This document shows, one piece after another, positions 214 to 27,542 of a stretch of DNA of 27,549 nt. The stretch lies in the IMG/VR virus record IMGVR_UViG_3300049828_000304, positions 1 to 27,549 of that record; one strand, given 5' to 3'. Source of the stretch: a virus (taxonomy: Duplodnaviria; Caudoviricetes). Each line of letters opens with the position of its first letter. Within the stretch, counting starts at the first letter, position 1. The notes under the pieces were generated by a model, which was not told the DNA's origin, ran no database searches, and saw only the letters and a list, made by a program, of their open reading frames with translations. A program made the position numbers and the translations under genes.

Positions 214-372
214 ATGTTAGTATGGTTTACGCATTTAGGAGAAGCTCTTACTGAAGTGGAATTTAATAAAAGAGCTTCTATGAGATTAGCCGGACTGTGT
301 CCTTGGGACATGGCGTTACGATTGCAAATGTGGTATGATTTAGACTTAAGTTGTGGATTCGTTTATTTCTGA
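214..372 (+). CDS. hypothetical protein, 52 aa (not in ORF track)
   Basis: GGAG at 205-208, ATG 214, MLVWFTHLGEALTEVEFNKRASMRLAGLCPWDMALRLQMWYDLDLSCGFVYF, TGA 370-372; fills the gap between neighbouring genes. Confidence 0.6.
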   Translation: MLVWFTHLGEALTEVEFNKRASMRLAGLCPWDMALRLQMWYDLDLSCGFVYF

Positions 373-389
373 GTTAACTTTAGGACTAA
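369..389 (+). repeat. junction copy of 21-bp motif
   Basis: CTGAGTTAACTTTAGGACTAA; contains the TGA stop of 214-372 and runs into the TAAGGAG RBS of 399. Confidence 0.9.
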
Positions 390-398
390 GGAGTTTGT

Positions 399-650
399 GT
401 GGACTTAAACTACATTATTTACTGGTCTGAGTTAAGAGGTAAGACTCTGATGGGGCAAGTTAAATTGGCTAATCAGTATTTTCGTAAGTTTGACACTAGT
501 TATAAGTTTCCTATTTGCAGTAAATTTAATGCCACTAACAGGGCTATAAATAGGATACGAAATTCTGGGATAATTTATGATAGTGTATGTGAATACGTGC
601 ATTTAATTGATAGCGAAATTTCGGATATTATAAACAAAGTACTGAGTTAA
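399..650 (+). CDS. hypothetical protein, 83 aa
   Basis: TAAGGAG RBS before GTG start; compact operon context. Confidence 0.7.
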   Translation: MDLNYIIYWSELRGKTLMGQVKLANQYFRKFDTSYKFPICSKFNATNRAINRIRNSGIIYDSVCEYVHLIDSEISDIINKVLS

Positions 651-662
651 CTTTAGAGCTAA
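642..662 (+). repeat. junction copy of 21-bp motif
   Basis: CTGAGTTAACTTTAGAGCTAA; contains the TAA stop of 399-650 and runs into the TAAGGAG RBS of 673. Confidence 0.9.
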
Positions 663-672
663 GGAGTAGGGT

Positions 673-1188: not shown

Positions 1189-1415
1189 AAACAACTAATA
1201 TTGTTGCAGGGTGTCACAACAAATGTAAGTCATCTTTAGTTTTACCACTAGCTGCGAAGGGAATAATTAGAGTTAGAAATGGGGATGACAAAGTCATAGT
1301 ACAAGCATCATCAGAAGATATTTTAAAAAACGATTGGAATGGAACCTGTGTCGTACTTGGAATTACGACTAAAGTTGACTCAGATAGCAACATTAAACTT
1401 AAACTGGTGAGGTAA
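1179..1415 (+). CDS. hypothetical protein, 78 aa
   Basis: AAGGGAG RBS, overlaps the upstream stop. Confidence 0.65.
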   Translation: MLIKTTNIVAGCHNKCKSSLVLPLAAKGIIRVRNGDDKVIVQASSEDILKNDWNGTCVVLGITTKVDSDSNIKLKLVR

Positions 1416-1418
1416 ACA

Positions 1419-1712
1419 ATGAAAGATTTTATTAACATTGGTAGCAGTCCAAGTGCAGAAGATTGCGTTCAACTAGGTACGGAAAATTACTCGCAAATAG
1501 CAAGAACAGAATGTAATAGATTAATAGCGTTATTGCGTAGAATACATGGTGATGAGCCAGAGGGCGCCAGTTTGAGAATAATGGGATTTAACCACGATTT
1601 TGGCAGATACTATGAGGTAGTCTGTCATTACGACACAGAAAAGCCAGAGAGTGAAGAGTACGCATTCAAATGCGAGAATTTACCAGATACTTGGGAGCCG
1701 GAAGTATGCTGA
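1419..1712 (+). CDS. hypothetical phage protein, 97 aa
   Basis: GAGGT RBS, protein-like composition, operon context. Confidence 0.75.
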   Translation: MKDFINIGSSPSAEDCVQLGTENYSQIARTECNRLIALLRRIHGDEPEGASLRIMGFNHDFGRYYEVVCHYDTEKPESEEYAFKCENLPDTWEPEVC

Positions 1713-4345
1713 AAACCGAAGCGGTAAAAAAATTCCTGCTTACAACAGGCAACAGACACCTAACCGATCTATACGAACCTTGCATGGAATTGCAAGTAAA
1801 TGTAGGTCAAGATGGTGGAACTCGAACAGGCGGAGTATACAATGGAGTGCATTGGTCAGGGTGGACAGACGGCACGAGTACATGGAAATCATTTCGTGTA
1901 CCGTGGGGAGCAGGGAACACGGAGTCAGTTAGCTATACTGACTCAGCCCTTAATTGGAATCTAGAAGACCATGCCGAGGGTATAGGTATGACTGGGTGGG
2001 ATTATGTTAATAGACAATCCCATTGGGTTGGATTCGATTTTGATTCTATAGCTAACCACAAGGTGGGGCTAAGTGTGGAAGAGCTAGAATCTATACGACT
2101 GCAAGTGACTCAGATTCCATGGGTAACACTTGTTAAGTCTACAAGTGGAAAGGGATTGCATATCTATGTACACCTTGACAATGCTGTTGGTATAGGTAAC
2201 CACGGTGAGCATGCCGCTCTAAGTAAGAGTATACTATGTCTGTTATCGCAGGAAACTGGATACAACTTCCAGGCCTCAGTAGATACATGTGGCGGTATTC
2301 TATGGGTATACCACAGAAAACAGGAGGGTACAGACGGTTTAGCTCTGCTAAAGCAAGGAGAGAAACTGAGTAAACTTCCGTCCAATTGGCGGGATTACAT
2401 CGAGGTAGCTCAGGGAAAGAAAAGGAAACTGAGTTACTCTAAGGAGTTTGAAACTCTAATACAGGGTATGAAACAACAAGAGTTAGATGCAGACCACAAG
2501 AGATTGCTTAAGTGGTTCTGCACATCGGCTGACAGGAGTAACTGGTGGGACAGTGAAAACAATATGCTAGTGTGCCACACATTAGACCTAGCCAAGGCTC
2601 ATAAGGAATTAAAACTTATGGGGTTCTTTGCAACTTCATCATCGGGTTCTAGCGACCAAAACTGTTTTTGTTTCCCGTCCCACGGCGGTTCTTGGATGGT
2701 ACGTAGGCACTCTTTAGGGGTTAAGGAACACCAGTCATGGGTGAGTGATCCGTCAGGGTGGACTAGGAGCGGTTTTAACGCCGTTCCAGAGTTTGAGTCA
2801 GCGGCTAAGAATTGCAAGGGCATCGAAAATATTAAAGGAGATTTCGTATTTTCTCAAGCTAGCGACGCCTTTGCCGCTTTATTAGCCCTGGGATTAACTC
2901 AGGTTTCGTGCCCCGAAGGATATGAGTCTAGACCTACTACTGTTGGTAGAAAGATAGAAAGGATACTAGTCAGACTAATGGCCTTTCCAAATGATAAGCC
3001 TCCAGAGGGGTACTTACTGAGTAAAAAAGAGGATCATTGGGAGGCAGTATTCACTCTGCCTCAAGTTAGGCGTGAGGTATACACCCCTGATAATCTTATA
3101 AGGCATATAATATGTAATAGTGCCGAGGCAGGTTGGTATATTCACGCTAGAGAGCGTTGGATAGAAGAAAATAGGCAAAACATCGTTACTGTTCTAAACG
3201 CTCAGGATAGTAAAAATGCACAGGAAATGATGTCTAAGTGTATCTTAAGTCCTTGGGAGATAGTAAACATTCCTTTTGAGAGCGAGTACCCAGGAAATAG
3301 GCAGTGGAATAAAGATTCCGCTAAGTTGGCTAAAAAGCCAGAGGAGGGTAACTTTTCTACTTGGATTGACTTACTATCACACATTGGGGCTAATCTTAAC
3401 TCAGATATTATAAAAGATAGGTGGTGCATAGGCAATGGAGTACGGGATGGCGGAGATTACTTACTCTTATGGGTTGCTAACATGTTTATGCGACCCTACG
3501 AACCGCTACCGTATCTATTCTTAACAGGGGAGCAAAACAGTGGTAAGAGTACGTTTCACGAAGCTCTGGAATTATTATTTCTAGACCGTAGGGGGTATGC
3601 TAGAGCGGACTTAGCTGTAGTTGAAAAATTTAATTCTCAGTTAGCAGGAGCAGTATTAGCAGTAATTGAGGAAACTGATTTAAGAAAAAATAAGGAGGCG
3701 TATAGCAAGATTAAGGATTGGGTTACTAGTAGGACAATAAGCATCAATACCAAATTCGTAAGTGTGTATGATGTTAAGAACACTCTTCACTTCATTCACT
3801 GCACTAACGACAGTAACTTTTGTCCTGTATTTCCTGGGGATACTAGGATAACAGCAATCTATGTAAATAGTATACCTGCTAGTAAAGAGATACCTAAGTT
3901 AAAGCTGTTGGAGAAACTAAATTCTGAGTCAGCCGCATTCCTACACCACATTCTTAATTTAGAATTGCCAGAGAGCGAAGGGCGTTTGAGCATACCTTGC
4001 ATTCATACAGATATTAAGTCTGAGATACAGCAAGGTAATATGACTGATTTAGAATTATTTATTGACGAGAAATGTTATGTAGTTAGAGGTAAGCAGTTGA
4101 ATTGGGACGAGTTCTATTGGGCTTTCATAGAATGGTTGCCGAGTGATAAAAAAGGGGCTTGGAGTACTAATAGAGCGGCTAGGGCTTTTCCTAAAAGAGT
4201 ACCGCTGTGCAAGGGTAAGATAGGCAGTGACAATATTACTGTTATTGGAAATCTGAGCCTAACGCAGGCAGTAGATGAACCGTATGAGTTATTTACAGAT
4301 GACAAAAACAGAATAGGAAGGAGAATGTATGCAAGCAGTAATTGA
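1706..4345 (+). CDS. primase-helicase fusion (AEP/prim-pol-like N-terminus + SF3/DUF5906-like helicase)
   Basis: WVGFDFD (DxD) and STSGKGLHIY AEP motifs; Walker A GEQNSGKST, Walker B AVIEE, motif C HCTN. Start moved from 1670 to ATG 1706 (GGGAG RBS, overlaps upstream stop). Confidence 0.85.
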   Translation: MLKTEAVKKFLLTTGNRHLTDLYEPCMELQVNVGQDGGTRTGGVYNGVHWSGWTDGTSTWKSFRVPWGAGNTESVSYTDSALNWNLEDHAEGIGMTGWDYVNRQSHWVGFDFDSIANHKVGLSVEELESIRLQVTQIPWVTLVKSTSGKGLHIYVHLDNAVGIGNHGEHAALSKSILCLLSQETGYNFQASVDTCGGILWVYHRKQEGTDGLALLKQGEKLSKLPSNWRDYIEVAQGKKRKLSYSKEFETLIQGMKQQELDADHKRLLKWFCTSADRSNWWDSENNMLVCHTLDLAKAHKELKLMGFFATSSSGSSDQNCFCFPSHGGSWMVRRHSLGVKEHQSWVSDPSGWTRSGFNAVPEFESAAKNCKGIENIKGDFVFSQASDAFAALLALGLTQVSCPEGYESRPTTVGRKIERILVRLMAFPNDKPPEGYLLSKKEDHWEAVFTLPQVRREVYTPDNLIRHIICNSAEAGWYIHARERWIEENRQNIVTVLNAQDSKNAQEMMSKCILSPWEIVNIPFESEYPGNRQWNKDSAKLAKKPEEGNFSTWIDLLSHIGANLNSDIIKDRWCIGNGVRDGGDYLLLWVANMFMRPYEPLPYLFLTGEQNSGKSTFHEALELLFLDRRGYARADLAVVEKFNSQLAGAVLAVIEETDLRKNKEAYSKIKDWVTSRTISINTKFVSVYDVKNTLHFIHCTNDSNFCPVFPGDTRITAIYVNSIPASKEIPKLKLLEKLNSESAAFLHHILNLELPESEGRLSIPCIHTDIKSEIQQGNMTDLELFIDEKCYVVRGKQLNWDEFYWAFIEWLPSDKKGAWSTNRAARAFPKRVPLCKGKIGSDNITVIGNLSLTQAVDEPYELFTDDKNRIGRRMYASSN

Positions 4346-4877
4346 CGTAGAAACAACCGGTCTAGTAAGGGGCGTAAATGAAATTATCGAAATTGCAGTT
4401 TTGCAATTTGACGATAACTTTGAGCTGACAGGAAATATATTTCATAGTTTGGTGAAACCTAATACTATGCCTACAGCCGAGGTTACGAAAATAAACAACA
4501 TAGGAATACCTGAGTTAACATTAGCCCCAACAGCATCGCAAGTTAGAAAGAGATTCGTAGAGTGGAAACTGGAAGTATTTGGGGAAGAGAGTATAGTTCC
4601 ACTTGGGCACAACTACGGATTCGATAAGGGATTCTTAGAGAATTTTTTCAAAGACTTGTACTTAGACCTGTTTCACTACCGAAATAGGGATAGTCAGCAG
4701 GCCGCAATATTTCTTAGAGATTGCGGAGTATTGACTGCTAGGTCTACTGGACTGGAAGCGTTAGCTGAACATTTTTCCTTGAAGAGTAAAGGGGATCTTC
4801 ATAGGGCGGTAAGTGACGCGGAAATGACGTTAGAGGTGTACAAAGAATTAATACTTTTACAAAAGGAGATCGTATGA
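4329..4877 (+). CDS. DEDDh 3'-5' exonuclease (DnaQ/epsilon-like)
   Basis: ExoI IDVETTG, ExoII HNYGFD, ExoIII HRAVSDA. Confidence 0.92.
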   Translation: MQAVIDVETTGLVRGVNEIIEIAVLQFDDNFELTGNIFHSLVKPNTMPTAEVTKINNIGIPELTLAPTASQVRKRFVEWKLEVFGEESIVPLGHNYGFDKGFLENFFKDLYLDLFHYRNRDSQQAAIFLRDCGVLTARSTGLEALAEHFSLKSKGDLHRAVSDAEMTLEVYKELILLQKEIV

Positions 4878-5114: not shown

Positions 5115-5157
5115 ACTCAGGTCACAGCAATGTGGCCTGAGTTAACTTTAGGACTAA
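5115..5157 (+). promoter_or_regulatory. 12-bp stem GCAA-tetraloop hairpin fused to a motif copy
   Basis: ACTCAGGTCACA-GCAA-TGTGGCCTGAGT (5115-5142, one G-U pair); the right arm overlaps motif copy 5137-5157. Confidence 0.6.
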
Positions 5158-5200: not shown

Positions 5201-7355
5201 AGTTAAAGTGTAAGAATGAGTAAACTATACCATTACCAGTACGTTCCGCCATTGCGTGACCTACCTCACGGAAATGTATTGTATCAACTGGCACTGTAGA
5301 TAAACCCTCCACAGTCCCGGCAGTGGTACTGCCTGTTACGAGTACTTGACCTCTGGAAACATTTCCATATGAATTTACATAAGAATAACCAGTAATCCGT
5401 ACACGCACATACTCACCCGCAGATGCCGCATTTTGAGCCACACCTACCGGCATTGATTGGCCATCTCCACTTGTTGGGCAAGCCCGTACACGATAGTTTG
5501 CACTTGTGCCAAGAGCTGTAACAATGTCATACTGGTTTATTGTTCCGTCAGCTGTTAATGTAAGATCGTTTCCGTAAGTGCTTATTTGATCGTAATGATC
5601 AGCAGTAGTAGAGTACGTTGTTCTAATTAATACACCAGCATTACTTGCTGATATTTCTGTTATTGGATACCCGTCACTCGCTCGCAAGCTTATTGATGGC
5701 GTTGCCGATGTACTTGTACCTGTGATATCAATACCTGATTGCGATATAGATATAACTGGAGACGTTGCTACAGTTAAACTGCTTATAGTTAAACCACTAT
5801 AACTAAGCGTTAAATTTGGCGTATTATCACTTGACATCAATGTAATAATTGGAGTTGTTGAATTGCTCGTAGATTTTAAAGTTAAATCACCATTACCATA
5901 TAGTTTAAGTGTTGAACTGCTCCAATTACTTACTCTTAATAGCGGGTCTGTATCTGCAAGTATAGTGCCATTTATACCAGATAAAATACTAACTCCAGTA
6001 TTGCCCGTACCAGTAGCCAAATCATTAGTAGTAAGTGATCCAGTAGCATCAATAGAAAATGATGTATATGGCCCTGTACCTATATTCAAACTTATACTTG
6101 CAGTTGGAGAACTTGACGCATTAGAATACAAATTTAATTCTGGCCCACCAGAGGTGGCAATATTGTCTACCCGCAGTAAATCAGAAGAAAAATTAAATGC
6201 TCCATCGCTACCAATTGTCAACCTGTCTGTAGGAGTAAAACTACCTGATTTTGTTGTTGAGAATATTAATGATCCAGGTGTGCTACTTCCCGAGGCTGTC
6301 GCTGTTGTTTTTGATTGTATACGGGCAATAGTACGTTGCATATCAGTACCATTAGCGGCACAAAATTCTATCATTCCAACCGCGTCACCAGATTGTACAG
6401 CTCCATTTCCGCCTACGCTTCCACTCGAAGATGCACCTAAATACAATGCAGATGGGAATCCGTTTGAATCGTTATTTATAACGCCTATTGACGCATATCC
6501 TATTTGAGTTCCCTCGACGTGCAATGATGACCCATATGATGTAGTAGCGTCTCCGCCCATATATCTACGTGCTGAAGCGGTGCCAACATATGTCGTGCCA
6601 TCTCCATCAATCCCAAATCTACGAACACTGTTATTAAAAATAGAGTATATCTTGCTTGCATTACCAATACTGGTCTTACTGCCTACGCTCTGCATGGCAA
6701 CATTTATTGCCAAACCTGAGTCACCTGTAGTGCTAGTATTGTAGTAGTCATGAGTTACAGTACCGTTAGCAATATTTTTAGTGTGTCCTAGTGATTGCAT
6801 TAAGAAAGATTCGTTCCTAATAAGGCCGAAGGCCGTTCGTTCGTTTGCAGTACGTGTTCCAGATTCCAAAGCTATAGAGGTAAAACCTGATGTATCTGGA
6901 CTAACAATACTAATAGGTGCTAGCGGCACCGTAGCGGTTGTGCCACTATCCCAGATAGAGTTAGCCCTTACCTTGCTGTCCCCATTTATCTCCAGAGGGA
7001 ATGAAGGATTGCTCATTCCGAAACCTAGACCTAGACCTGAATTTGTAAAATAGGCTCTAGCGACTCCTGCGGGGGAAATGCTTAGACTCGTTGCTCCTAT
7101 ACTGATCTGTGCTGTGCCAGACTGGGATTTAATTTTTTCTATGTACAAATCTTTAAACCAGTTGTCTTCGTAAATCCAAGCACTACCATTCCAGTATTTT
7201 TGATTGGCAGTTACGTGTAAACGAGGCGTACCCTGGCTATCTTTGTAGCACCAATTTCTACTTCCATCGGTATCTATGCCTCTCATTTGCGCTTCAAGAT
7301 TAGCAATCAAATTTGACATAGTATCAACTTTACTGTAAATTTTCTTGTCAGCCAT
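5199..7355 (-). CDS. tail fibre / receptor-binding protein, 718 aa
   Basis: Last gene of the tail operon; Gly/Ser/Thr-rich beta-repeat shaft (RLTIGSDG, RFGIDGDG, PGSLIFST); C-terminal GVAQNAASAGEYVRVRITG domain. Confidence 0.75.
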   Translation of the reverse strand: MADKKIYSKVDTMSNLIANLEAQMRGIDTDGSRNWCYKDSQGTPRLHVTANQKYWNGSAWIYEDNWFKDLYIEKIKSQSGTAQISIGATSLSISPAGVARAYFTNSGLGLGFGMSNPSFPLEINGDSKVRANSIWDSGTTATVPLAPISIVSPDTSGFTSIALESGTRTANERTAFGLIRNESFLMQSLGHTKNIANGTVTHDYYNTSTTGDSGLAINVAMQSVGSKTSIGNASKIYSIFNNSVRRFGIDGDGTTYVGTASARRYMGGDATTSYGSSLHVEGTQIGYASIGVINNDSNGFPSALYLGASSSGSVGGNGAVQSGDAVGMIEFCAANGTDMQRTIARIQSKTTATASGSSTPGSLIFSTTKSGSFTPTDRLTIGSDGAFNFSSDLLRVDNIATSGGPELNLYSNASSSPTASISLNIGTGPYTSFSIDATGSLTTNDLATGTGNTGVSILSGINGTILADTDPLLRVSNWSSSTLKLYGNGDLTLKSTSNSTTPIITLMSSDNTPNLTLSYSGLTISSLTVATSPVISISQSGIDITGTSTSATPSISLRASDGYPITEISASNAGVLIRTTYSTTADHYDQISTYGNDLTLTADGTINQYDIVTALGTSANYRVRACPTSGDGQSMPVGVAQNAASAGEYVRVRITGYSYVNSYGNVSRGQVLVTGSTTAGTVEGLSTVPVDTIHFREVGHAMAERTGNGIVYSFLHFN

Positions 7356-8318
7356 TTAACTTACCTCCTGCACGGTATCCGTGCCAGTTGTTACTTCCTG
7401 CCAGTCACCCGACGGATTACTGGAATATTCTTCATAAATATCGCCCTCAATCTCATCACCACGAAATTCCAATAACTTAAGGGTAGTAGTCATTCGTGAT
7501 ACTGATACCTTTTTCCCTACCACTAGGTAAGTGTTACCAGATGTGTGCCTTACCGTATTGGAGTCAATATCTACCCAATCTCCAATATTCCTAACATACT
7601 CTGTTATGGGTAGTGTAATAGTAAGAGTTCTTCTTGGCCGAGCGTAATAAAGGGCTATATTTCTAGCCAATATACGACCGTATGTTACATCTATGATATA
7701 CTTCAGTTTCAGATTAACTTGTTTCTTTAGCCCTACTGTTAACTCAGGCTCTGCTACATATGAACTAGATATAAAATAAGCATTCTCCTTAGCAGGATTT
7801 TCAAAGGCTTGAAAATAAACATCTGTCACAACGTTATTCAGTGAACTTATTTCTTCACCCCAATCTGTACGACCATTAGAAAGTACCAAATCTGAGTCAA
7901 GATAAGTCCTGATAGATGCCTGAGGGAAAGAATCTGTTAGCCTAAGACTTCCACTTGGGGACTCTGATAGTATTATACCAGTCTGCAAGCAAATATTATT
8001 TATAATATCTCTGTATAGTAACTCCTTTTTCTCACATACTCTTATAGACCAGGAAGCTCTGGATACTTGCATACTGGCAAAACTACCAGTATCAATATTA
8101 GTATATCCTAAACCACGTCTAAGTAAGTCCTCTATTATCTGCACTGGTGAGGTAAGGGTAGCGCCTTCAACGGCTGAGGCCATGCCCGCAGGGGCTAACC
8201 TACCCTTACCAGTAAAAAATACAGCTGTGCCTGAGCTAGAATCTATTGTGAAATCTATTAGAAATTCAGGATTCTGCAAATAGGCAAAGCTACCACTATA
8301 ACTGTTATAATCAGCCAT
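7356..8318 (-). CDS. tail tip / baseplate-hub-like protein, 320 aa
   Basis: Position after TMP/Dit; SPVQIIEDLL, IINNICLQT and IGDWVDID patterns typical of hub proteins; AAGGAG RBS. Confidence 0.6.
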   Translation of the reverse strand: MADYNSYSGSFAYLQNPEFLIDFTIDSSSGTAVFFTGKGRLAPAGMASAVEGATLTSPVQIIEDLLRRGLGYTNIDTGSFASMQVSRASWSIRVCEKKELLYRDIINNICLQTGIILSESPSGSLRLTDSFPQASIRTYLDSDLVLSNGRTDWGEEISSLNNVVTDVYFQAFENPAKENAYFISSSYVAEPELTVGLKKQVNLKLKYIIDVTYGRILARNIALYYARPRRTLTITLPITEYVRNIGDWVDIDSNTVRHTSGNTYLVVGKKVSVSRMTTTLKLLEFRGDEIEGDIYEEYSSNPSGDWQEVTTGTDTVQEVS

Positions 8319-11163
8319 TCCATTCTCCTTGATAGGTTAGTACCCATCTGGTAGTGTTCAAATCCTTCAAATTATTGCCTAGGCAGTAACCATCTCCCGC
8401 CTCGCCAAATTTAACACCTGCTATAAATTTGCCAGTTGGTATACCTTCCCAGTCCATCTTTTGAAAGAAATATGGGTCTTCACCACCTGCTCTAACTATT
8501 GGTAGCAGGAAACATTTCCCCCCAGAGGTAAAATTGATTGCTACACCCCTAGTTGACGCGTATCCTGTCCACTTAAGTTTCATACCTGTGACTTTGGCGT
8601 CAAGATTGACGGTAGGAAATACAACATCCAGTAGATAACAGAAGTACCTTCTATACACATCTGATGCCTCATAGCTGTCAGAATACGCGGGTCGAGAAGA
8701 AAAATTAACCGTTATCTCAGTAACACTACTACCAGTGAATACTGGTGATACTGTAGCCACGGGCCAATTATTAGTTGCCATGTACGGCCCACCAGTATTT
8801 CGTAATTCATTGAACATGCTGTAGTGGCCGTTGGCGACATTAATAGGCAGTAAACTAAGAGACCCAGTGAACTTATTAGATGGTTTGACCGTAGTAGTAT
8901 CTGAATTAGTAGTATCTATTCTGTACACAGCAGACCCGTCAGGATGCTCGGCAGCCACAGAATTATTTATCCCTCTCCGTACTAGGTATGAAGAATGGGT
9001 GTCATTAAATTCTACACTCACCTCCTGAGTTATTTCAAGGTACTCGTCGTCTATTTTGATTATAGTAGTAGGTACTTTAATAGAGCTAGTATGGTCACTA
9101 GAATTTACAAAGTCATCATTAGGGACTAGGAAATCAAATGCTCGGTAAGGCAAAGATACATAGTCAGCAGTTATTATCAGTTCTTCCAATATCTGTATAT
9201 CTTCATCCGATGTGGGATAAGCTACTAGATACATCCTACCAGAAGCAGGGATATATCTGAAATTCTCTGCACATTGAAGAATAAATACATGATTACCAGA
9301 ACCATCTGGCCCTTCATACCTAACATAGTTATCCTGATTATTTGGTCTGTAGTATACATAATCACCCTCTGGCCCCTCATAGATTAATCCATCTGGGTAA
9401 CCATCTATGAATACGTACCACTCTCCTACGTCAAATACAGTTGATGACTGTACTCTTATTTTATACGGATTATACAAGTATAAAAGACGGCTATCAGAGT
9501 AAGTAATCCCCACAGTTTCCAATTCCGGTATTACCTCTTCGGCAGTAACTATTCCGTTACTAGAACTAAGCGAGGATGAATATACAGGGGTAAACGCATC
9601 AGAACTTTCATCATATATAGCCGCCCCTGTTACTTCGCCTATGCCAAGAAAATCAACCACAAGCCTACCCAAATCATCAATCTCGCTAGGCATAGCCGCT
9701 GTAGCATCATAAATAGGATAACTACCATAACATATTCTACCTTCAGTACTAGCATCACTAAGAGAATTAAAACTACTGCGAAGTATCAGAACCAAATTAT
9801 CTCTACTCTTATTTAATTCTGATATTTGCCCAGAAAATATAACCCCTCCATTTACATCTGTCAAACCTGAGTTAACATTAAGCCTAATAGTTGCGATACG
9901 CCCAATAAGTCTGTCCATGCGAATATCAGAATCTAAATCCTGAAGAGTAAGAGTCATTTCACTGGTATCAGCAATCCCACCAAGACCAGATATGGAGTAT
10001 GTACCATTCATTGCAGGTTCGCCAATTTTAAACTCTTGATCGTAGTTATCAATAGACACTAATCTATCCGACAGTAAGTTACTAGATACTACTGCATCTA
10101 TCTCAGTAGTATTACCAAGAATAAAACCGGTATACCCACTACAGGTTGCACTCCCAAATGGAGATGTATCTACTGTATCCCATTCCCCCACAGTTGTCGG
10201 AGTCAATACTACTGATACAGAGTATCCTGGCTTTGGCAGTCCTTCCGCCCGCAGTAAAGTACCATTGGTAGTGGTAGAACCGTATATACTACCGCTGTAG
10301 GAAATAACTTTACTTATCAAAGTTTCTGAGTTTAGCTGAGTGCATATTTTTATCCAACCTGTTTGTGAAGAATTCAGCTTAAAAAGGAAGGCATTATTTC
10401 CCGTACCGCCGTACAGTGACCCTCCGTACTCTACTAATGATGCTATTTCTATTTGAGAATCTGTTTGTGAGCATACGAGTTCCCAGGCATTCTTGCCGGA
10501 ATTGAGTCTAAGAAGCCTACCACTGTTGTAAGAAGTTCCGTATAGCCTATCTTGGTACACTATCAGGGAGCTAATAGAATAATCATCTAAGTACGATTCA
10601 GCCACTAGTTCCCAGGCATCCTCTGTTGAGTTAAGCCGAAATAAATATCCACCGTCGGCTCCATTATATGTCCCTGCGTATAGCACTCCTTCATATACAC
10701 ACAACGCAGTTATTGTAGCTTGAAAGTCCAATTGACTACAAACTAGTTCCCAGGAATTACCTGCAAGGTTAAGCCTCTGTAAATTTCCAAGCGAACCTGT
10801 ACCACCATATAGCCTAGAATTATACTCGCACAACGCACTTACTTGTCTTTGATCATTTATGCTATTAGATACTAAGTCCCAACCATTCTTACTTGAGTTA
10901 AGACTTAACAGTTTGCCGCCATTATTTAGACTATTCCTATACGTGCCTGCATATAATTTATTGTTATACACAAGCAGACTTAGTATTCTAGTTTGACTAG
11001 AATACTGTGCGCAAACTTGTTCCCAGGCATCGCCACTGGAGTTTAATCTATATAGACGACCGCCTTGGCCAGTTCCTGCATAGAGTATCCCTTCAAATTC
11101 ACACATGGCATATATAACACTCTCAGAACCTAACTTGCCTGCTACCTGTACCCAATTTGACAT
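8311..11163 (-). CDS. large tail-tip protein with N-terminal 7-repeat beta-propeller, 950 aa
   Basis: Seven 43-48 aa repeats (WExV...I.AL..Y.G.LY.GT...G.L.RLNS), then hub-like segment (GGVIFSGQI) and a KIDDEYL...VRRG.NNS.AAEH motif. Confidence 0.7.
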   Translation of the reverse strand: MSNWVQVAGKLGSESVIYAMCEFEGILYAGTGQGGRLYRLNSSGDAWEQVCAQYSSQTRILSLLVYNNKLYAGTYRNSLNNGGKLLSLNSSKNGWDLVSNSINDQRQVSALCEYNSRLYGGTGSLGNLQRLNLAGNSWELVCSQLDFQATITALCVYEGVLYAGTYNGADGGYLFRLNSTEDAWELVAESYLDDYSISSLIVYQDRLYGTSYNSGRLLRLNSGKNAWELVCSQTDSQIEIASLVEYGGSLYGGTGNNAFLFKLNSSQTGWIKICTQLNSETLISKVISYSGSIYGSTTTNGTLLRAEGLPKPGYSVSVVLTPTTVGEWDTVDTSPFGSATCSGYTGFILGNTTEIDAVVSSNLLSDRLVSIDNYDQEFKIGEPAMNGTYSISGLGGIADTSEMTLTLQDLDSDIRMDRLIGRIATIRLNVNSGLTDVNGGVIFSGQISELNKSRDNLVLILRSSFNSLSDASTEGRICYGSYPIYDATAAMPSEIDDLGRLVVDFLGIGEVTGAAIYDESSDAFTPVYSSSLSSSNGIVTAEEVIPELETVGITYSDSRLLYLYNPYKIRVQSSTVFDVGEWYVFIDGYPDGLIYEGPEGDYVYYRPNNQDNYVRYEGPDGSGNHVFILQCAENFRYIPASGRMYLVAYPTSDEDIQILEELIITADYVSLPYRAFDFLVPNDDFVNSSDHTSSIKVPTTIIKIDDEYLEITQEVSVEFNDTHSSYLVRRGINNSVAAEHPDGSAVYRIDTTNSDTTTVKPSNKFTGSLSLLPINVANGHYSMFNELRNTGGPYMATNNWPVATVSPVFTGSSVTEITVNFSSRPAYSDSYEASDVYRRYFCYLLDVVFPTVNLDAKVTGMKLKWTGYASTRGVAINFTSGGKCFLLPIVRAGGEDPYFFQKMDWEGIPTGKFIAGVKFGEAGDGYCLGNNLKDLNTTRWVLTYQGEWNG

Positions 11164-11168: not shown

Positions 11169-11573
11169 TTAGCTCCTTCTAAATCTGTAAGGTATTTTAA
11201 CATCGTAATTTCCTGGAGCAACAAAAGAAAACATATCTTTAGTAGATGGATCTGAGTCAACATTAGCCGTAACAGCTACATTCTTACCGTTCCCCAAATC
11301 CAGATTAACCACTGCCCCAATTGTAAATGCGTATTTACTAAAAATAATATTATCTTTAATAAATGTTTTTAAACTCTCTCCGTGAGTGTAGGACACGCCT
11401 TTCATAACTAAGATACCATGACAGACAGTAACGCCAGAATCAAAAGTAACCAAACCGCCATCTGCGGTTTGGAGACTTATTTGATTGATTCTTTCATCCC
11501 ACCAATCGGTACCGTATACAACAGAAGCACTTATGGTACATGTAGTACCGTAAGTAAAAGATACATTAATCAT
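11169..11573 (-). CDS. putative distal tail (Dit-like) protein, 134 aa
   Basis: Immediately follows the tape measure gene with ATGA overlap; beta-rich; assignment by synteny only. Confidence 0.55.
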   Translation of the reverse strand: MINVSFTYGTTCTISASVVYGTDWWDERINQISLQTADGGLVTFDSGVTVCHGILVMKGVSYTHGESLKTFIKDNIIFSKYAFTIGAVVNLDLGNGKNVAVTANVDSDPSTKDMFSFVAPGNYDVKIPYRFRRS

Positions 11574-14443: not shown

Positions 14444-14825
14444 GATTCACCTTTCTCTTTCTATCCAAGTATATTTTGTGATTACGTCTGCTTAAGAAAT
14501 AACTCATTGCGTCCCAGAATACTTTTAGGCCTACAGGTAACTCAGGTAGTGTACTTAGGTAAGCATGAGCATTATCTATAGTTATAAAACCATTAGCATC
14601 TAACGGGCTGATATTTACGATAGTTGTGAATATGTCCCACAATTCTGGGAGTTTAGTACATTGAACCAACTGTCTGATATTTATATGAGGGTCTTGGATA
14701 CGAAAACAGGAACCTGTCGATTGACAGATTCCTGCTTCCTCACTATTCGTAAACTGACATGACACACACAGTCCGTAAGACCACTCCCAATCGACTGTAG
14801 CGTCACACCAGTTTGTTAGTTTTTT
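14424..14825 (-). CDS. tail assembly chaperone frameshift extension (gpT-like part of gpGT)
   Basis: -1 frame open from the slippery site through the ORF-track ORF 14424-14765 (KLTNWCDATVDWEWSYGLCVSCQF...). Confidence 0.8.
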   Translation of the reverse strand, partial: KKLTNWCDATVDWEWSYGLCVSCQFTNSEEAGICQSTGSCFRIQDPHINIRQLVQCTKLPELWDIFTTIVNISPLDANGFITIDNAHAYLSTLPELPVGLKVFWDAMSYFLSRRNHKIYLDRKRKVNHANSSR

Positions 14826-15179: not shown

Positions 15180-15200
15180 TTAGGGCTAAAGTTAACTCAG
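15180..15200 (-). repeat. junction copy of 21-bp motif
   Basis: CTGAGTTAACTTTAGCCCTAA on - strand, 3 nt after the stop of the 15204 gene, running into the AAAGGA RBS of gpG. Confidence 0.9.
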
Positions 15201-15203: not shown

Positions 15204-16544
15204 TTATACTGCAAACATTTGATTGGCTGAAAGTGAACTGCGTACTCTCATAAGCATAGAACCATTTTGAATCAATGAATTACTTGCTAACCAAGAGCTC
15301 CATTGATTGGTAGTAGGCACGCCTACATCTAGTTCAATAGCCTCTTGCGCTACATCACTTTCATCTGGCCCTGCCGCCTTAATCTTAGCTTCCTGTATAA
15401 GCATTTCTTGCATATAGAAACCACTTCTACTGGCCCAACGTGCAACAACTGAAGTCCAGTTATCAAGATAATCTTGATAGGTTGTTGCACTGTACCTAGA
15501 GATAGTACCACCAAAGGTAACACCATACTTACCTTCTAAATGCGGTTCAGCGATATATGTACCACTAACAGTGTCCTGCATAACTTGCAACGGTATAGTA
15601 AATCCTGCATTGAAAGCTATTATTCCAAGATTTACAAGTGTGGATTCACTAGCCCCTATCTGAAACAGTGTCTGGTGGTGAGCTACGATATTATCATTTG
15701 CCACACTAGTTGTAGGTACAGTCCAGTTACCGCTAGCGTAATTAGCTCTTGTTTCATCGTAAGAACAGAAGTCTATAGCCAATTCAGATAACTGACCTGA
15801 GTCACTTTTAAGACTAAAACCTTTGCACATTGAATTAGGGTAACGGAAATCATTAGTACCCATCTTTACGCCGATGGTAGCCATACGATTCTTTTTAGCT
15901 CCTGAAATCCAACCTCCACCATTTGCGGCTGTTATCTGTTCAGCTGTAGGGTAGTCTACTAAATGCCTAGTAGTCGAGTCCAACTCATACAGATGCTCGT
16001 ACATCAATCCAGAATGGGAGGTGTAAGTGAGCGTTGCATCCCCAGTGCCTGCACTCTTAGTAAGTGTGCCAGTCTGAGAGGTAGGAGCTATTGTCGTACA
16101 AAGGAATACTTGATAGGTGGTAGCTCCCCAAACCTCTTTACGCATGAAAGTAAATGTCTTACTGTCTGTAGTGTAAGTAGCTCCCGCTGTAGGCTGAGTT
16201 GTAGGAGTATTTACAACGAATACAGTTACATTTTTTACAGCATTTTCAAAACCAAATGACCAGTAAAGGAATTTTTCCATGTCATCGAATCTATTGTGCA
16301 TTGATATCGCACGTTCTACATATTCAGTAACTTTGCGAGTAGTATCAGAAAAAGCACTCGTTGTTATACTGTTATCGGATACACTGTTAATAGTTTTTCC
16401 CTTGCCGAGTGACAGGTAAGGAAAAGCATTTCCCGCTCCAAGAGTGACAGGGCTACTGGCCCCTCCCCAAGCACTATTAGTCGGTACTAGACCGGCTTCC
16501 TGCTTAAAAGCTCCTACTTGTAGTATCTTAACACTTTCAGCCAT
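15204..16544 (-). CDS. tail tube protein paralogue 2 (with inserted domain), about 446 aa
   Basis: Similar by eye to 16627-17583 (DNSITTSAFSD/DESISGSAFRD; FRYPN..KGFSLK/NRYAN..NSWALK; GGTISRY/GSFTFSRH). Start moved to ATG 16544 (GGAGG RBS). Confidence 0.7.
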   Translation of the reverse strand: MAESVKILQVGAFKQEAGLVPTNSAWGGASSPVTLGAGNAFPYLSLGKGKTINSVSDNSITTSAFSDTTRKVTEYVERAISMHNRFDDMEKFLYWSFGFENAVKNVTVFVVNTPTTQPTAGATYTTDSKTFTFMRKEVWGATTYQVFLCTTIAPTSQTGTLTKSAGTGDATLTYTSHSGLMYEHLYELDSTTRHLVDYPTAEQITAANGGGWISGAKKNRMATIGVKMGTNDFRYPNSMCKGFSLKSDSGQLSELAIDFCSYDETRANYASGNWTVPTTSVANDNIVAHHQTLFQIGASESTLVNLGIIAFNAGFTIPLQVMQDTVSGTYIAEPHLEGKYGVTFGGTISRYSATTYQDYLDNWTSVVARWASRSGFYMQEMLIQEAKIKAAGPDESDVAQEAIELDVGVPTTNQWSSWLASNSLIQNGSMLMRVRSSLSANQMFAV

Positions 16545-16562: not shown

Positions 16563-16591
16563 ATTATAAATATTCTTAGTCCTAATGTTAA
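16563..16591 (-). promoter_or_regulatory. candidate sigma70-type promoter TTAACA-N17-TATAAT
   Basis: -35 TTAACA (16586-16591) lies inside motif copy 16576-16596; perfect -10 at 16563-16568; RBS 16550-16554 just downstream. Confidence 0.55.
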
Positions 16592-16623
16592 CTCAGGTCA
16601 ATCTGAGTTAACATTAGGCGTAA
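16576..16623. repeat. back-to-back inverted pair of the 21-bp motif
   Basis: TTAGTCCTAATGTTAACTCAG-GTCAAT-CTGAGTTAACATTAGGCGTAA. Confidence 0.92.
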
Positions 16624-18149: not shown

Positions 18150-18697
18150 CCTAAAGTCCTATCTACTGAAGTAGCAGTTGTTTTTCTCAGTGTAAGTATA
18201 TCATCGCCAGTTCTATTCTTATACGTCACTGAATCATCTGAATTATATACACGAGAGCCAGTCATTTTTGCCATTAACAAACTCAAAATCTGAGTAAACG
18301 TTAGGCCTTCTATCGTCGTACTACTTCCTATCATAGTTAGGTCAGATTTTACTCCTACTCCAGACATAGCCGTAGCACCGCCACCTACTACTTTTCCAGG
18401 CAGGTCGTTAGTTGTTACAATATGTATTGTTTCCGGTATTACATTTGGGAGCGTAGTTATAGGTAGTATTACTATATTACTAGCAGTCATTTCCGAATCT
18501 GTTAATACTATCTTATACACTCCAGATGCTGTACTATTGGCTAATAGTAACTCAGATACATTATTGGTGGTAACTGCAAACTGACCACCGTCTTTGCTTA
18601 CCTGCACAGTTATATTTGCCGAACTACTAGTAACAGCTACTCCAGAAGAGTTTCTTATTGAAAATGTAAAAGATGTTGATTTAGCGTATTCTGCCAT
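18146..18697 (-). CDS. virion structural protein, beta-sandwich-like, about 183 aa
   Basis: VSKDGGQF..TTN..SE...GVY..VLT.SEM pattern; start moved to ATG 18697 (AGGGAG RBS). Confidence 0.55.
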   Translation of the reverse strand: MAEYAKSTSFTFSIRNSSGVAVTSSSANITVQVSKDGGQFAVTTNNVSELLLANSTASGVYKIVLTDSEMTASNIVILPITTLPNVIPETIHIVTTNDLPGKVVGGGATAMSGVGVKSDLTMIGSSTTIEGLTFTQILSLLMAKMTGSRVYNSDDSVTYKNRTGDDILTLRKTTATSVDRTLG

Positions 18698-21371: not shown

Positions 21372-21956
21372 TTAGAGCTCCATGTCTGAGTTAACATTAG
21401 GACTAACTAACACATATAATTTTGATTTACTTTTAAAATAGTTTGATAACTCCAACGGATTCGGTGCAACAGGGCAATCTGAGTCAACAAAAGTCCTAAG
21501 AATGTCTGCAACATTTTCAGTGCAAAAATCGCCCTTAGCGTTGTTCTTAAACCACGGCATTTTACCAAACAATTTTCGACCCAACGGGCTACTCAAAATT
21601 GCACCTTGTAAATCATAATTCTTTTGCTCTCTACGGAGGTACGACAGTCGCTGTCTTGCGCCCATGCGTATATACCCGTCATCGAATCCTACGCATCGCC
21701 ATACTTGTACAATTTGCTCTCTTGTACCTGCGTACTTTTCAAGGCTATTTTCCTGCAAGTGCAAGCCCATTTCAGTTGCGAAAAACTGACCGTAGTTCTC
21801 CGTTATAAATCCACCGTGTGTCGGGGTGGTATCGTCTTTCGGAGCAAATTTCATCGTTTCGGCAATCCGAATAATCCGGCCAAAAGGCTTATTACTGTGA
21901 GATAGAAATATATCCATATCACGGAACGATTTATAATCTATTGTTGTTTTTTTCAT
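21372..21956 (-). CDS. permuted papain-like NlpC/P60 (YiiX/YebB-like) amidase/peptidase, 194 aa
   Basis: DIFL...IR...THGG (His) precedes YD...FCTE (Cys): permuted catalytic order. Confidence 0.75.
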   Translation of the reverse strand: MKKTTIDYKSFRDMDIFLSHSNKPFGRIIRIAETMKFAPKDDTTPTHGGFITENYGQFFATEMGLHLQENSLEKYAGTREQIVQVWRCVGFDDGYIRMGARQRLSYLRREQKNYDLQGAILSSPLGRKLFGKMPWFKNNAKGDFCTENVADILRTFVDSDCPVAPNPLELSNYFKSKSKLYVLVSPNVNSDMEL

Positions 21957-21964: not shown

Positions 21965-21985
21965 CTGAGTTAATATTAGGGCTAA
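21965..21985 (+). repeat. junction copy of 21-bp motif
   Basis: CTGAGTTAATATTAGGGCTAA; on the - strand it supplies the TAG stop of the 21982 gene and begins the CAGGAG RBS of 21956. Confidence 0.9.
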
Positions 21986-22626: not shown

Positions 22627-22661
22627 ATTACCCCATCTTGTGGAGTGTTTATATGGCAATA

Positions 22662-22687: not shown

Positions 22688-22691
22688 CTAC

Positions 22692-22712
22692 CTGAGTCAA
22701 CATTAGGACTAA
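22692..22712 (+). repeat. junction copy of 21-bp motif
   Basis: CTGAGTCAACATTAGGACTAA, intergenic after the capsid gene. Confidence 0.92.
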
Positions 22713-22728
22713 TTAACCAACTAGTTGG

Positions 22729-23730: not shown

Positions 23731-23758
23731 AGTACTTTCACTTTCTGGTCTGTTAGAC

Positions 23759-23779
23759 CTGAGTTAACATTAGGACTAA
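23759..23779 (+). repeat. junction copy of 21-bp motif
   Basis: CTGAGTTAACATTAGGACTAA, 3 nt after the stop of the 23783 gene; identical to copies 21386 and 16576. Confidence 0.92.
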
Positions 23780-23782
23780 CGG

Positions 23783-24643: not shown

Positions 24644-24655
24644 AGTCTTTTCTCC

Positions 24656-25129
24656 TTACTGCCTAACGGCAGCTTTATATTGTGAATTAAACAAATCCGC
24701 AAACTCTTTCTTTGCATACATCCAGGCGGTGCCTTTAGAACATGAATACTTCTTTTTGCAAAAATCCATAGCCTCTTCTTTGGTTCTAACATCTTGAGTA
24801 TCCAGTTCACTACCAGTAGCACTACCTGCTGTTTGTGGAGCTGTAGAAGTGAAGGCTAATGCTAACTCAGCTTTGTAACTACTTGCCTTATCAAGGACTG
24901 TAGCTACTATCTCGTTAGCGTCCTTACACGTTCCAGTAAGTTCTTCCACTGTAACATCAAGAGACTTTGCAACTGCTTCAAGAGTATCATTATTTAGGGC
25001 TAATGTTGACTCAGGTTCGGCAACCGTTGGAACAACAGATGCCGCACCTGCCGAGAATATCTCGTCATAAGCGGCTTTATTGTGTTCCTTAATCTGGTCA
25101 ACCGATGCTTTCTTAAGAAAAATAAACAT
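24656..25129 (-). CDS. putative capsid scaffolding protein, 157 aa
   Basis: Acidic Ala/Glu-rich helical protein directly after the protease; AAAGGAG RBS. Confidence 0.6.
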   Translation of the reverse strand: MFIFLKKASVDQIKEHNKAAYDEIFSAGAASVVPTVAEPESTLALNNDTLEAVAKSLDVTVEELTGTCKDANEIVATVLDKASSYKAELALAFTSTAPQTAGSATGSELDTQDVRTKEEAMDFCKKKYSCSKGTAWMYAKKEFADLFNSQYKAAVRQ

Positions 25130-25186
25130 TCCAGACTCCTTTCGCTCGCCAGTGGCGGCAGTTATTAAATTATAATTAAATTATAA

Positions 25187-25984
25187 TTAGATTATTAGGT
25201 CTTTCATAGTTGCTATTTCGTCTATAAGACCGAGTTCCTTAGCTTTGCTAGCCATAAATACTTTGCCATCTGCCCAAACGCTAATATCTGAGTTAACATT
25301 AGGCCTATTAGACTGTACCGCCTTAGTAAACTCATTATAGATACTGTCTACTTGTTCTTGCAAGTATTCAATGCCCATTTCAGTCATCGGAGTATTGGGA
25401 TTACCTATAGCTTTGTATTTGCCCGCTGATATTACGTGTACTTTTAATCCCATAGCATCGTTTATCATAGACTGATCTACTACAGACAAGTAAACTCCTA
25501 TACTGCCAACTAAGTCTGTATTGCTACTAGCAACAATAGCACTACATTGACTAGCTAACCAGTATGCGGCAGAACAACATTCCCCGCTTATAAAGCCAAT
25601 GGTTTCTTTGGAACTGTTTCTAATGGCATTCGCAAATTCCTGTATGCCACTGACTGAACCACCTGGGCTATCAAACTGCAAAACTATTCTAGCTACAGAG
25701 GCATCGGATTGCAAAGCCTCGAATGATTTGGTTAAATCAGTTATAGTTTGCATACCAGACATAGATTCTAAGCCGTAGGTTTTCTTTAAAAGAGTACCCT
25801 CGATTGGCAGAATACCAGTGCTAGCTATCACTACTGAACCTGAGTTAACTTTAGGGCTATCGGTGGTCGGATAAGAGCCAGACATTTTACTAAGTAATAT
25901 GGCATTGAATAGTTCTAATTTATCCTTGCGAATTAACCAAGGTTGTCCACTTACGGTTTCAAGCAATAGATTACCAGTTACCAT
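25187..25984 (-). CDS. head maturation protease, S49/SppA (lambda gpC-like), about 265 aa
   Basis: FDSPGGSV, CSAAYWLAS, VGSIGV, AGKYK, GLIDEI motifs. Start moved to ATG 25984 (GGAGG RBS). Confidence 0.93.
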   Translation of the reverse strand: MVTGNLLLETVSGQPWLIRKDKLELFNAILLSKMSGSYPTTDSPKVNSGSVVIASTGILPIEGTLLKKTYGLESMSGMQTITDLTKSFEALQSDASVARIVLQFDSPGGSVSGIQEFANAIRNSSKETIGFISGECCSAAYWLASQCSAIVASSNTDLVGSIGVYLSVVDQSMINDAMGLKVHVISAGKYKAIGNPNTPMTEMGIEYLQEQVDSIYNEFTKAVQSNRPNVNSDISVWADGKVFMASKAKELGLIDEIATMKDLII

Positions 25985-27542
25985 CTTCTTTCCTCCTTTC
26001 TTTTTTGTCATCTTCGCTTATATCACCATCTTCAACTGATTCCCCAGGTCTTGTTTTAGGCTTATAATCCCCACCCTTGGCGCCGGCGGCGTCAGCGTCA
26101 GCGGCCGTTTCTGGAAACACAAGTCCTTTCTTTTCATACTCTTGCCTCTTGGAAATCAACTCAGCCTGTTCTTCAAGAGCTAAGTTAGCTTCTTCGTTGA
26201 TTTCTTCCATCACTTCATCGTAGTCGTTGCCCTCTTCCTCAACTAGCATCCTACGACTCTTAGTTTTGTTATTCAATGCCAACTTGCTAGCCCTGCCTTC
26301 CTTCTCTGGGTCAAGCATACCAAGTGACGGCCACCGAATTGTAATTGAGACGTCTTTCACATTTCCAGAAACTAAATTCTTAAGTACAGCTTCTTCTATC
26401 ATAGTATCAGTTATCCAAGTAATAACTGAGTCAACTTTACGCCTCCAACGAGTTATGAAGCGTTTAGTCTCCAGAACTGCCCCTCTCCAACTACTGTAGT
26501 TCACCTCAGCGGTGTCTAAAAATAGAATCGGATAAGGTATACGAACATAGGCAGAAACTATTTTAAGAAGTCTTACAATAAAAGCGTCAGTATTGTCCCC
26601 AGGTTTGTTGGGACTAGCCATACTAACGTCTTCTCCTGGCCGCATATATGTTATCTGGCCAGGTTGCAATTTGCTAGCCCTCTGCCCTGACGTTGGGTCA
26701 GATACTGAATCGCCATTATTATAATCAGTAGTCATTGTAGCCAATGCTTTTCCTGGGTTATTTGTCTTTACAAATACAGAAAAGCAGGCAGCAACGCGTG
26801 CTCCTACTACAGTAGCTTCAATAAAATCACCAAGTTGTTTCAGAAAATGAATCGCCGGTGTGATTACTGGAAACTGTCTGCTACTCTTTGGCCTGCTGTT
26901 TAACGGAGCTTTAAATAATTGAGTAACTTTTCTTCTGTACATAGTCCCGTCAGCGAGTGTAACCGACTTATAACACGGAAAAAACGTGAAATTGTTGCTT
27001 GAATCGCCTTCATAATCCACTTTATCAGCATTTTTTACCCAATATCCTTTCACCTTACCTGATACCTCATACTCTACGCCCAAACGAATTTGTTTATTCC
27101 ACAATAAATCATTTGGAGTCTTAATTCTCTGAGCTTCTACCAACTCTACAACTGTTTGGATGCCCTCACGGTCTGTATCAATCGGTAGCGAAATAAGAAT
27201 ATCGCCGTCGGAGAAGCTCCAAGCGACGATTTGTTCTATTAGGTCTACAATTGACTCAGATTCTGTGATGTCTAAGGATTCAAGATTGATTAATTCGTTT
27301 AATTTACGAGTCTGCAAATCATTTTTGCCGTAAATCTTAATAGCAGGATAGCCAATAATTGTAATATAAGACTGCTGTATAGCCGCAGCTACACAGTTGT
27401 CTTTTATTAATTGCCTACTAAGCAATCTCAACTGCTTAAGAGTATTGCTATTATTCAAATCATAGTCAGGAGAAGTCTCAGTACCTATCGGCCAAGATAG
27501 AGTCTGAGCGTTACTTCTCGCCGCTGAAAAGGTTGATGCCAT
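25971..27542 (-). CDS. portal protein, lambda family, 523 aa
   Basis: LR..SR.L..DN, DGD.L, GVE....G...GYW, NYSS.R and DPEKE motifs; upstream of the S49 protease. Confidence 0.93.
   Translation of the reverse strand: MASTFSAARSNAQTLSWPIGTETSPDYDLNNSNTLKQLRLLSRQLIKDNCVAAAIQQSYITIIGYPAIKIYGKNDLQTRKLNELINLESLDITESESIVDLIEQIVAWSFSDGDILISLPIDTDREGIQTVVELVEAQRIKTPNDLLWNKQIRLGVEYEVSGKVKGYWVKNADKVDYEGDSSNNFTFFPCYKSVTLADGTMYRRKVTQLFKAPLNSRPKSSRQFPVITPAIHFLKQLGDFIEATVVGARVAACFSVFVKTNNPGKALATMTTDYNNGDSVSDPTSGQRASKLQPGQITYMRPGEDVSMASPNKPGDNTDAFIVRLLKIVSAYVRIPYPILFLDTAEVNYSSWRGAVLETKRFITRWRRKVDSVITWITDTMIEEAVLKNLVSGNVKDVSITIRWPSLGMLDPEKEGRASKLALNNKTKSRRMLVEEEGNDYDEVMEEINEEANLALEEQAELISKRQEYEKKGLVFPETAADADAAGAKGGDYKPKTRPGESVEDGDISEDDKKERRKEDGNW

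Follow-up and report, generated by a model that had tools for sequence, protein, structure and literature searches.

Short repeats dispersed over a whole phage genome are known from the Cluster O mycobacteriophages, in which 17-base-pair (bp) dyad repeats of unknown function occur, with 34 copies in Corndog (PMC4351075). These phages carry an orphan ParB-like gene and neither an integrase nor parAB, and in the accessible part of that report the authors draw no link between the repeats and ParB (PMC4351075). As far as the available texts go, KorB slides from 12 dispersed sites on plasmid RK2 (PMC13768133), and ParB of P. aeruginosa binds hundreds of parS half-sites (PMC5961200). Here we consider an asymmetric 21-bp motif that recurs along a stretch of 27,549 nucleotides, analysed at its full length and called the window below (IMG/VR virus record IMGVR_UViG_3300049828_000304; Duplodnaviria, Caudoviricetes). 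The window is a fragment, a 27.5-kilobase (kb) virus record without a further contig, from an uncultured phage with a lambda-family portal. The Cluster O repeats are the closest case in print to its motif, and KorB at its operators (OB) and the binding of half-parS sites suggest how a reader of such a motif could work.

The copies of the motif very probably form a lattice on which a protein docks. The lattice is real and under selection, it is a family-wide trait, and no explanation for it is in print. A first reading, made from the sequence only, had called it a candidate undescribed system. A literature search, with most subscription papers and supplements outside its scope, found no paper that deals with this phage family, with sites of this kind being evenly spaced or with a link to ParB; the dispersed Cluster O dyads are of a comparable kind, however, so far as that source was available (PMC4351075), and to that extent the claim of novelty has to be narrowed. 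The even spacing independent of strand, the lineage dialects across the family and the orphan ParB-like candidate reader in relatives go beyond the sequence-only reading.

Abundance and spacing of the motif

The exact core CTGAGTYAA occurs 29 times in the window, from 369 to 27259 (20 copies on the + strand and 9 on the - strand), against a mean of 0.56 and a maximum of 5 in 300 base shuffles. Synonymous-codon shuffling of the 30 genes, a control named beforehand, gave a mean of 1.08 and a maximum of 5 in 300, compared with 21 genic cores observed. A weight matrix with a cut-off of 10 bits finds 35 sites, 28 exact and 7 degenerate, and a stricter iterated matrix retains 32 (22 on + and 10 on -). 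The sequence-only reading had thus been right in proposing about 30 copies genome-wide, and close in its strand counts of 22 and 11; its assumed G+C content of 38% is replaced by the measured 40.3%.

The 21-bp consensus, ayCTGAGTyAACwtTAGkmCTaa, carries about 28 bits of information and consists of the 9-bp core followed by a 10-bp dyad, TTAG-N2-CTAA, so that the word is asymmetric overall. The dyad, already recognized as a palindrome in the first reading, has 10 exact copies against 0.82 expected. The best self-complementary centre of the motif is at position 16.5; the site as a whole is not an inverted repeat, its sole dyad being the internal one. The HpaI-like GTTAAC proposed as a second design element is present in 15 of the 29 cores, position 7 being C in 10, and is therefore not conserved. 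A scan of Rfam for a structured RNA element returned no match at the gathering score.

Twenty-six of the 35 sites lie within genes, including those for the portal, the protease, the tape measure and the primase. The genic sites occupy three registers and encode unrelated peptides, indicating that selection acts on the DNA. Sites are also found in 8 of the 10 intergenic gaps of at least 15 bases. Within genes 5 sites are sense and 16 antisense (coding constraint predicts about 27:37), and the intergenic sites have both orientations, which bears out the proposal that the motif is not locked to the direction of transcription. On orientation, membership among the stoperators was rejected.

The 32 sites are spaced more evenly than random (mean gap 866 bp; coefficient of variation, CV, 0.63; P=0.005). 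When the genic sites are randomised with the intergenic ones held fixed, the CV is 0.63 against 0.96 in the null (P=0.003); for the genic sites alone P=0.11. The relatives G001-G006 pass the same test with intergenic sites fixed, each at P<=0.0006. The evenness belongs to the two strands together: taken singly, neither strand of the window reaches significance (+, P=0.06; -, P=0.73). In the 16 contigs that have asymmetric words, close pairs on opposite strands number 16 against 44.7 expected, with none of 3000 shifts as low; in the window alone the deficit is not significant (2 against 3.8, P=0.17). The simplest reading of this avoidance is a single lattice on double-stranded DNA that is blind to orientation, so that coverage matters and direction does not. 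Such a lattice argues against stoperators, promoters and priming sites, and the regular spacing over the two strands points to coverage of the whole genome as the function, rather than promoter control. Genome-wide under-dispersion likewise differs from the few clustered parS sites of a ParABS system. The primase-helicase gene and the sites are as follows (ORF, open reading frame; aa, amino acids; SD, Shine-Dalgarno).

1670..4345, +: primase-helicase gene and family marker, DUF5906 / D5-like with a Pox_D5-like domain at the C terminus
369..389, +: full site at the end of a 57-aa ORF, fused to SD-like AAGGAG ahead of an 83-aa ORF
427..447, +: core-only copy below the matrix threshold, inside the 83-aa ORF
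642..662, +: full site at a gene junction, fused to SD-like AAGGAG
1363..1383, -: site inside a 78-aa ORF, antisense
2093..2113, -: degenerate site inside the primase gene
2882..2902, -: site inside the primase gene
3384..3404, -: site inside the primase gene
4510..4530, +: site inside the DEDD exonuclease gene, sense
5137..5157, +: site where the two arms converge, in the gap between them
6716..6736, +: degenerate site inside a tail-fibre-like gene
7727..7747, -: site in a 320-aa ORF, sense
7892..7912, +: site in the 320-aa ORF, antisense
9867..9887, +: site in the 950-aa tail gene
11252..11272, +: site in a 134-aa ORF
12085..12105, -: weak site with exact core, tape measure gene
12661..12681, +: site in the tape measure gene
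13673..13693, +: site in the tape measure gene
14525..14545, -: degenerate-core site in a 113-aa ORF
15180..15200, -: intergenic site
15797..15817, +: degenerate-core site in a 450-aa ORF
16576..16596, -: intergenic site, in a back-to-back pair with the 16603 site; contains the -35 of a sigma70-like match
16603..16623, +: intergenic site, partner of the 16576 site, 6 bp apart
18290..18310, +: degenerate-core site in a 201-aa ORF
18535..18555, -: weak degenerate site, 12.2 bits
18878..18898, +: site at the beginning of a 74-aa ORF
21386..21406, +: site at the end of a 194-aa ORF; contains the -35 of a sigma70-like match
21479..21499, +: site in the 194-aa ORF
21965..21985, +: site at a gene junction
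22692..22712, +: site in the gap after the major capsid gene, intergenic
23759..23779, +: site in the gap before the major capsid gene, intergenic
24850..24870, -: weak degenerate site in a 157-aa ORF, 15.2 bits
24994..25014, -: site in the 157-aa ORF, sense
25288..25308, +: site in the S49 protease gene
25840..25860, +: site in the S49 protease gene
26426..26446, +: site in the portal gene
27239..27259, -: site in the portal gene, sense

The + strand carries the genes for the primase-helicase, whose true start is probably 1706, and the DEDD exonuclease; on the - strand are those for the tail, tape measure, capsid, S49 protease and lambda-family portal. The two 26-bp copies at 369-394 and 642-667, 92% alike and each abutting an SD-like AAGGAG, flank the 83-aa ORF in a cassette-like arrangement. 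A 171-aa protein (673-1188) has the hexapeptide repeats of a YdcK beta-solenoid. The 74-aa ORF (18681-18905) has an internal repeat, with DNYGKPF twice, and no family match was found for it.

No RNA run was listed among the sequencing runs with this sequence. In run X1, contigs match the sites at 11269, 13691 and 25287 and then continue into other sequence; of the three tails two were checked, and both are absent from the window, which means that more copies of the motif exist in the run outside the fragment. Clusters of letter differences at 455-497, 1427-1508, 3076-3343, 11996-12047 and 27276-27477 point to a second strain, and none of the listed differences falls inside a motif site. Among the run contigs over 8000-27549 no joints between sites were found, which is not evidence of absence as contigs drop rare variants. 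Over 1-8000 there is one unexplained joint (7658-7833), and motif-bearing loose ends proved to be local matches to other window sites.

Dialects in the phage family

The window's exact word was not found as a lattice elsewhere: IMG/VR gave 42 loci, each one match with 1-2 cores, a stricter pattern gave no match in metagenomes, and an exact scan of 185,579 GTDB species for the window's dialect gave 5 matches, each a single copy. No cultured relative was found among 50,697 phage records, the best phage match being 26% over a quarter of the primase, and searching with the capsid protein by itself gave no relatives. The primase belongs to a large family, with 775 clusters among the candidates scored. 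In three primase matches (L105, L110 and L117) the matching region spans about 3.6 kb instead of 2.6 kb, which suggests an insertion such as an intein.

With the portal, 23 relatives were found, which collapse into 17 distinct phages, and the motif search among related phages that the sequence-only reading had suggested was productive: 15 of the 17 have a clear dialect of their own. A TGGGT or TGGAT core is present in 14, examples of the dialects being CTGGGTYA, TCTGGGTCG, GTGGATTAC and GGTTAGTCGA; G031 and G032 have two further dialects. Several relatives (G002, G003, L233) keep the two-part geometry with a different internal dyad, the centre of which ranks second among the self-complementary centres of G002 and G003. 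Between these two phages, at 50% aa identity, up to 9 of 24 testable genic sites are in exact register (a count that includes one visible duplicate alignment), with 0.01 expected, and the register-matched sites often switch TGGGT to TGGAT.

The sister clade mostly uses dyads of 13-15 bp, GATT-N3/4/5-AATC and longer forms. Of the 19 contigs scanned that have two ParB genes, 15 have a 13-15-bp dyad of the GATT or GAGT type, which is typical of a dimeric binder. In G004 the half-site of the palindrome, TGAGTTA, equals the core of the window's word, and half-sites are enriched in G027, G029 and G035 (z 5-7.5). A second word, of the GGTCRCTGG or GGTCCGAC type, is present in G009, G014 and G029, where it is clustered, partly tandem and not even. 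In the clade of about 43 kb with a single ParB, G034, G047 and G049 have sparse dispersed 8-mers (14, 11 and 7 copies in 40 kb); these are possibly thin lattices, their evenness not being significant where tested. The complete sister-clade relative G006 encodes a helicase with an intein and a LAGLIDADG domain (L157:1534-4338), a sigma70-like protein (L156:13995-14654) and a response-regulator receiver (L154:14545-15039).

The candidate reader and competing explanations

As the sequence-only reading had stated, the window holds no recognizable cognate factor: none of its 30 proteins matched a DNA-binding family. In the relatives, a ParB-like family is encoded by 22 of the 23 contigs first clustered, the exception being a fragment that ends before the locus. 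Co-occurrence of a DNA-binding protein with the lattice, another of the checks proposed at the outset, is therefore found in the family, except that several ParB bearers have no clear lattice. The sister clade has two ParB paralogues. The window's clade has a single one, ParB-A, whose gene stands at the outer end of the replication arm; it was found in five contigs of this clade, the window not among them. In G003 ParB-A is about 13 kb upstream of the primase, which would place the corresponding gene outside the 27.5-kb fragment.

The relatives' ParB-A has ParB_N and HTH_ParB domains (HTH, helix-turn-helix). Its profile matches Spo0J, Noc and KorB (E 4e-28 to 2e-16), and a structure model (predicted local distance difference test, pLDDT, 83) matches PadC (Z 11.3), the ParB-N of pNOB8 (11.2) and KorB (10.4). 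Sites are enriched four-fold within 800 bp upstream of the ParB-A gene (65 against 16.4 expected), compared with 15 against 12.9 for ParB-B, 20 against 17.0 for the helicase and 18 against 17.4 for the polymerase. In G036, which lacks a lattice, five 18-bp palindromes with a 19-bp period lie directly upstream of the ParB-A gene (L280:3563-3617, 3996-4032). G004, whose half-site matches the window's core, is also the only main-clade protein with the NAIQ second DNA-contact helix seen in five window-clade proteins (6 of 85 sequences), a single case that lends weak support to a ParB reader. Among 93 of the 115 proteins of G006 that were scanned, no ParA, integrase or CI-type repressor was found.

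In the explanation that we favour, the sites would load a phage-encoded DNA-binding protein, most probably an orphan one like ParB or KorB, encoded, on this view, in the replication arm that the fragment lacks. By spreading over a short range from a site each 0.9 kb or so, the protein would cover the whole phage chromosome. The 9-bp core would act as a ParB half-site, like that of the G004 palindrome, and the TTAG-N2-CTAA dyad would be a second, weaker contact. The purpose would be the organisation and the shielding or silencing of replicating DNA rather than partition, given that no ParA was found in the sole complete relative scanned.

Several observations weigh against this explanation. The ParB-like gene is absent from the window, the link being by family only. 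No strong lattice word was found in the ParB-bearing G020, G025, G036 and G039 or in the ParB-bearing clade of about 43 kb (G045, G047, G049, G050, G051, G053), and G011, also ParB-bearing, has a weak word only. Even spacing is not significant in 7 of 14 listed lattice sets, which include G007, G008, G009, G014, G016 and G023 (6 of the 13 tested); with looser site sets it is found at P<0.05 in 10 of 28 and is not significant in the other 18. None of the window's site positions is common with 19 relatives (3-12 testable sites each), so that either the lattice of the window arose anew or the word lacks homology; homology with the TGGGT dialects would have sequence and geometry as its sole basis. 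The enrichment upstream of ParB-A mostly reflects a divergent non-coding region common with the primase (50 against 18.3 expected), and in single-ParB genomes the upstream sites are 7 against 3.6 for ParB and 10 against 5.5 for the primase. The spacer class of the sites changes 7-9 times on all eight trees, with the helicase lowest and neither ParB singled out, and the best alignment column scores 0.71 for spacer class, equal to the shuffled null, in the 17 of 28 labelled contigs left after dropping 4 with mixed spacers, 4 close kin and 3 incomplete ones. The recognition helix of the window-clade ParB-A varies strongly and has no counterparts of the arginines R173 and R204, which contact parS according to the accessible part of the source (PMC7383237), and its cytidine triphosphate (CTP) boxes are degenerate. 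The five window-clade contigs with ParB-A gave no sign of the canonical-looking ParB-B, which mostly keeps those arginines. A helix glutamine of ParB-B was considered as tracking the GATT dyad and rejected, being kept also in several contigs without a clear dyad.

The rival explanations have to be judged against the same observations. The sites might be operators or roadblocks of a conventional repressor-type HTH protein encoded in the missing part of the genome, a stoperator-like silencing (the stoperators of Cluster A mycobacteriophages are 13 bp long). The long asymmetric word and the occupied intergenic gaps would fit, as would the 3 of 39 core matches that precede an SD sequence and a start (0.5 expected; similar in most relatives) and the TTAACA that two sites have at 16591 (-) and 21391 (+), which serves as the -35 in the two top-scoring sigma70-like matches (11/12). 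A multi-HTH protein is moreover encoded in G002 (L138:1447-1920) and G003 (L140:13032-13499), whose sites have the same two-part geometry. However, its gene is found in only 2 of 43 contigs searched, the scan of 93 of the 115 G006 proteins gave no integrase or CI-type repressor family, the sites are not oriented with transcription and the opposite strands make up one lattice, all of which make a repressor unlikely. The -35 matches concern only 2 of the 32 sites, a fixed spacing to a -10 was rejected, and the upstream position, sense orientation and fixed -10 of phage or sigma70 promoters were not found. In 14500-27549, promoter-like matches number 28 against a shuffle mean of 34.3, and terminator-like ones 7 against 8.1. 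Of the original idea of binding sites for a phage protein, what stands is a selected, genome-wide set of protein sites acting at the DNA level; promoters are unsupported.

Alternatively, the window's own primase-helicase could read the sites as loading or priming points, with replication starting about once per Okazaki-fragment length. Every family member has the primase, as does the window, the spacing is about 0.9 kb, sites are enriched upstream of its gene, and the Pox_D5-like domain offers a lead: the equivalent domain of P4 alpha binds origin repeats. The 8-nucleotide site TTTGGTTA, given as the recognition site of the NrS-1 primase in the accessible part of its report (PMC8718748), resembles the family core. 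Strand-specific priming, however, predicts no avoidance between opposite strands, and single strands are mostly not even; the halves of the sister-clade dyads vary independently, as for a dimer on double-stranded DNA, and neither the primase tree nor its columns track the spacer class, so we consider this reading less probable still. The phage might instead mimic a signal that a protein of the host reads (an uptake sequence, a Chi-like site or one for nucleoid occlusion), the dialects following the hosts. Uptake sequences have a density of about one per kb and a core plus a weak extension, as here, and no cultured relative was found. This is improbable in view of the single matches in GTDB, the 42 one-match IMG/VR loci and the empty metagenome search, all for the window's dialect only, with a host that may be unsequenced. 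Most improbable are sites for recombination or cassette shuffling, or targets of nicking or base modification. The 26-bp direct copies at 369 and 642, fused to SD sequences around the 83-aa ORF, would suit recombination, and phage ParB-fold proteins are able to activate base-modifying enzymes, as stated in the available text (PMC13229309). Yet exchange would be destructive at the 26 genic sites, both orientations occur, and the ParB proteins of the relatives retain their HTH, unlike the dioxygenase activators.

That the reader is a ParB-like protein we regard as about an even chance, because of the ParB-bearing relatives without a lattice, the uninformative trees and columns, the missing arginines and the lack of ParB-B in the clade. 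The statement as a whole, in which an orphan ParB/KorB-like protein would load on an even, orientation-blind lattice and cover the phage chromosome, is tentative and falls somewhat short of even. A broader proposal is doubtful: an uncultured family may tile its chromosome with self-specific sites for a partner-less ParB-type clamp, a private nucleoid marking self DNA, with the code rewritten in each lineage and two-armed palindromes turned into one-armed words where the second ParB paralogue was lost. Genome-wide phage repeats, as in Cluster O, and orphan phage ParB proteins (PMC12704722) both pose open questions. The family offers over 15 site dialects of natural origin, several of them paired with a ParB-like protein, so that the specificity of the reader is open to direct cross-binding comparison. 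If the link to ParB is true, it would give orphan phage ParBs a role and provide a set of orthogonal DNA-loading pairs.

Comparison with described systems

The following comparisons hold for the parts of the cited reports that were accessible. KorB and its operators resemble the proposed system in combining a ParB-family protein with dispersed, position-conserved sites that act over kilobases (PMC13768133, PMC11790492), and ParB-A matches KorB in profile and fold, a ParB N-terminal domain together with a ParB HTH being found in the relatives only. The KorB sites differ in being 12 palindromes of 13 bp in about 60 kb, whereas the window has one non-palindromic site per 0.9 kb or so. KorB works together with a ParA partner and with repressors that lock the clamp, and nothing of the kind is seen here; it is a CTP clamp, whereas both reader and clamp are putative in the window's family and the CTP boxes of ParB-A are degenerate. 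In P. aeruginosa also a one-armed word is read at hundreds of places, by a nucleoid-associated protein, but the case is chromosomal, with a 7-bp word beside canonical parS and ParA and without a selected 21-bp lattice (PMC5961200).

The stoperators of Cluster A share an asymmetric word repeated genome-wide (PMC4351075). They point with transcription and serve a temperate repressor (PMC4351075); the window's word is not oriented to transcription. The Cluster O repeats agree in having more than 30 copies, genic and intergenic, unoriented to transcription and mostly away from promoters. An orphan ParB-like gene like that of the Cluster O phages is absent from the 27.5-kb fragment and present in five window-clade contigs. 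The Cluster O repeats are inverted repeats of 7 bp that do not vary and lie more densely towards one end of the genome, and the sister clade described here uses full dyads as well. The window's word, in contrast, is asymmetric, with a core and an internal dyad, about twice as dense and evenly spaced, and its spelling shifts across the family.

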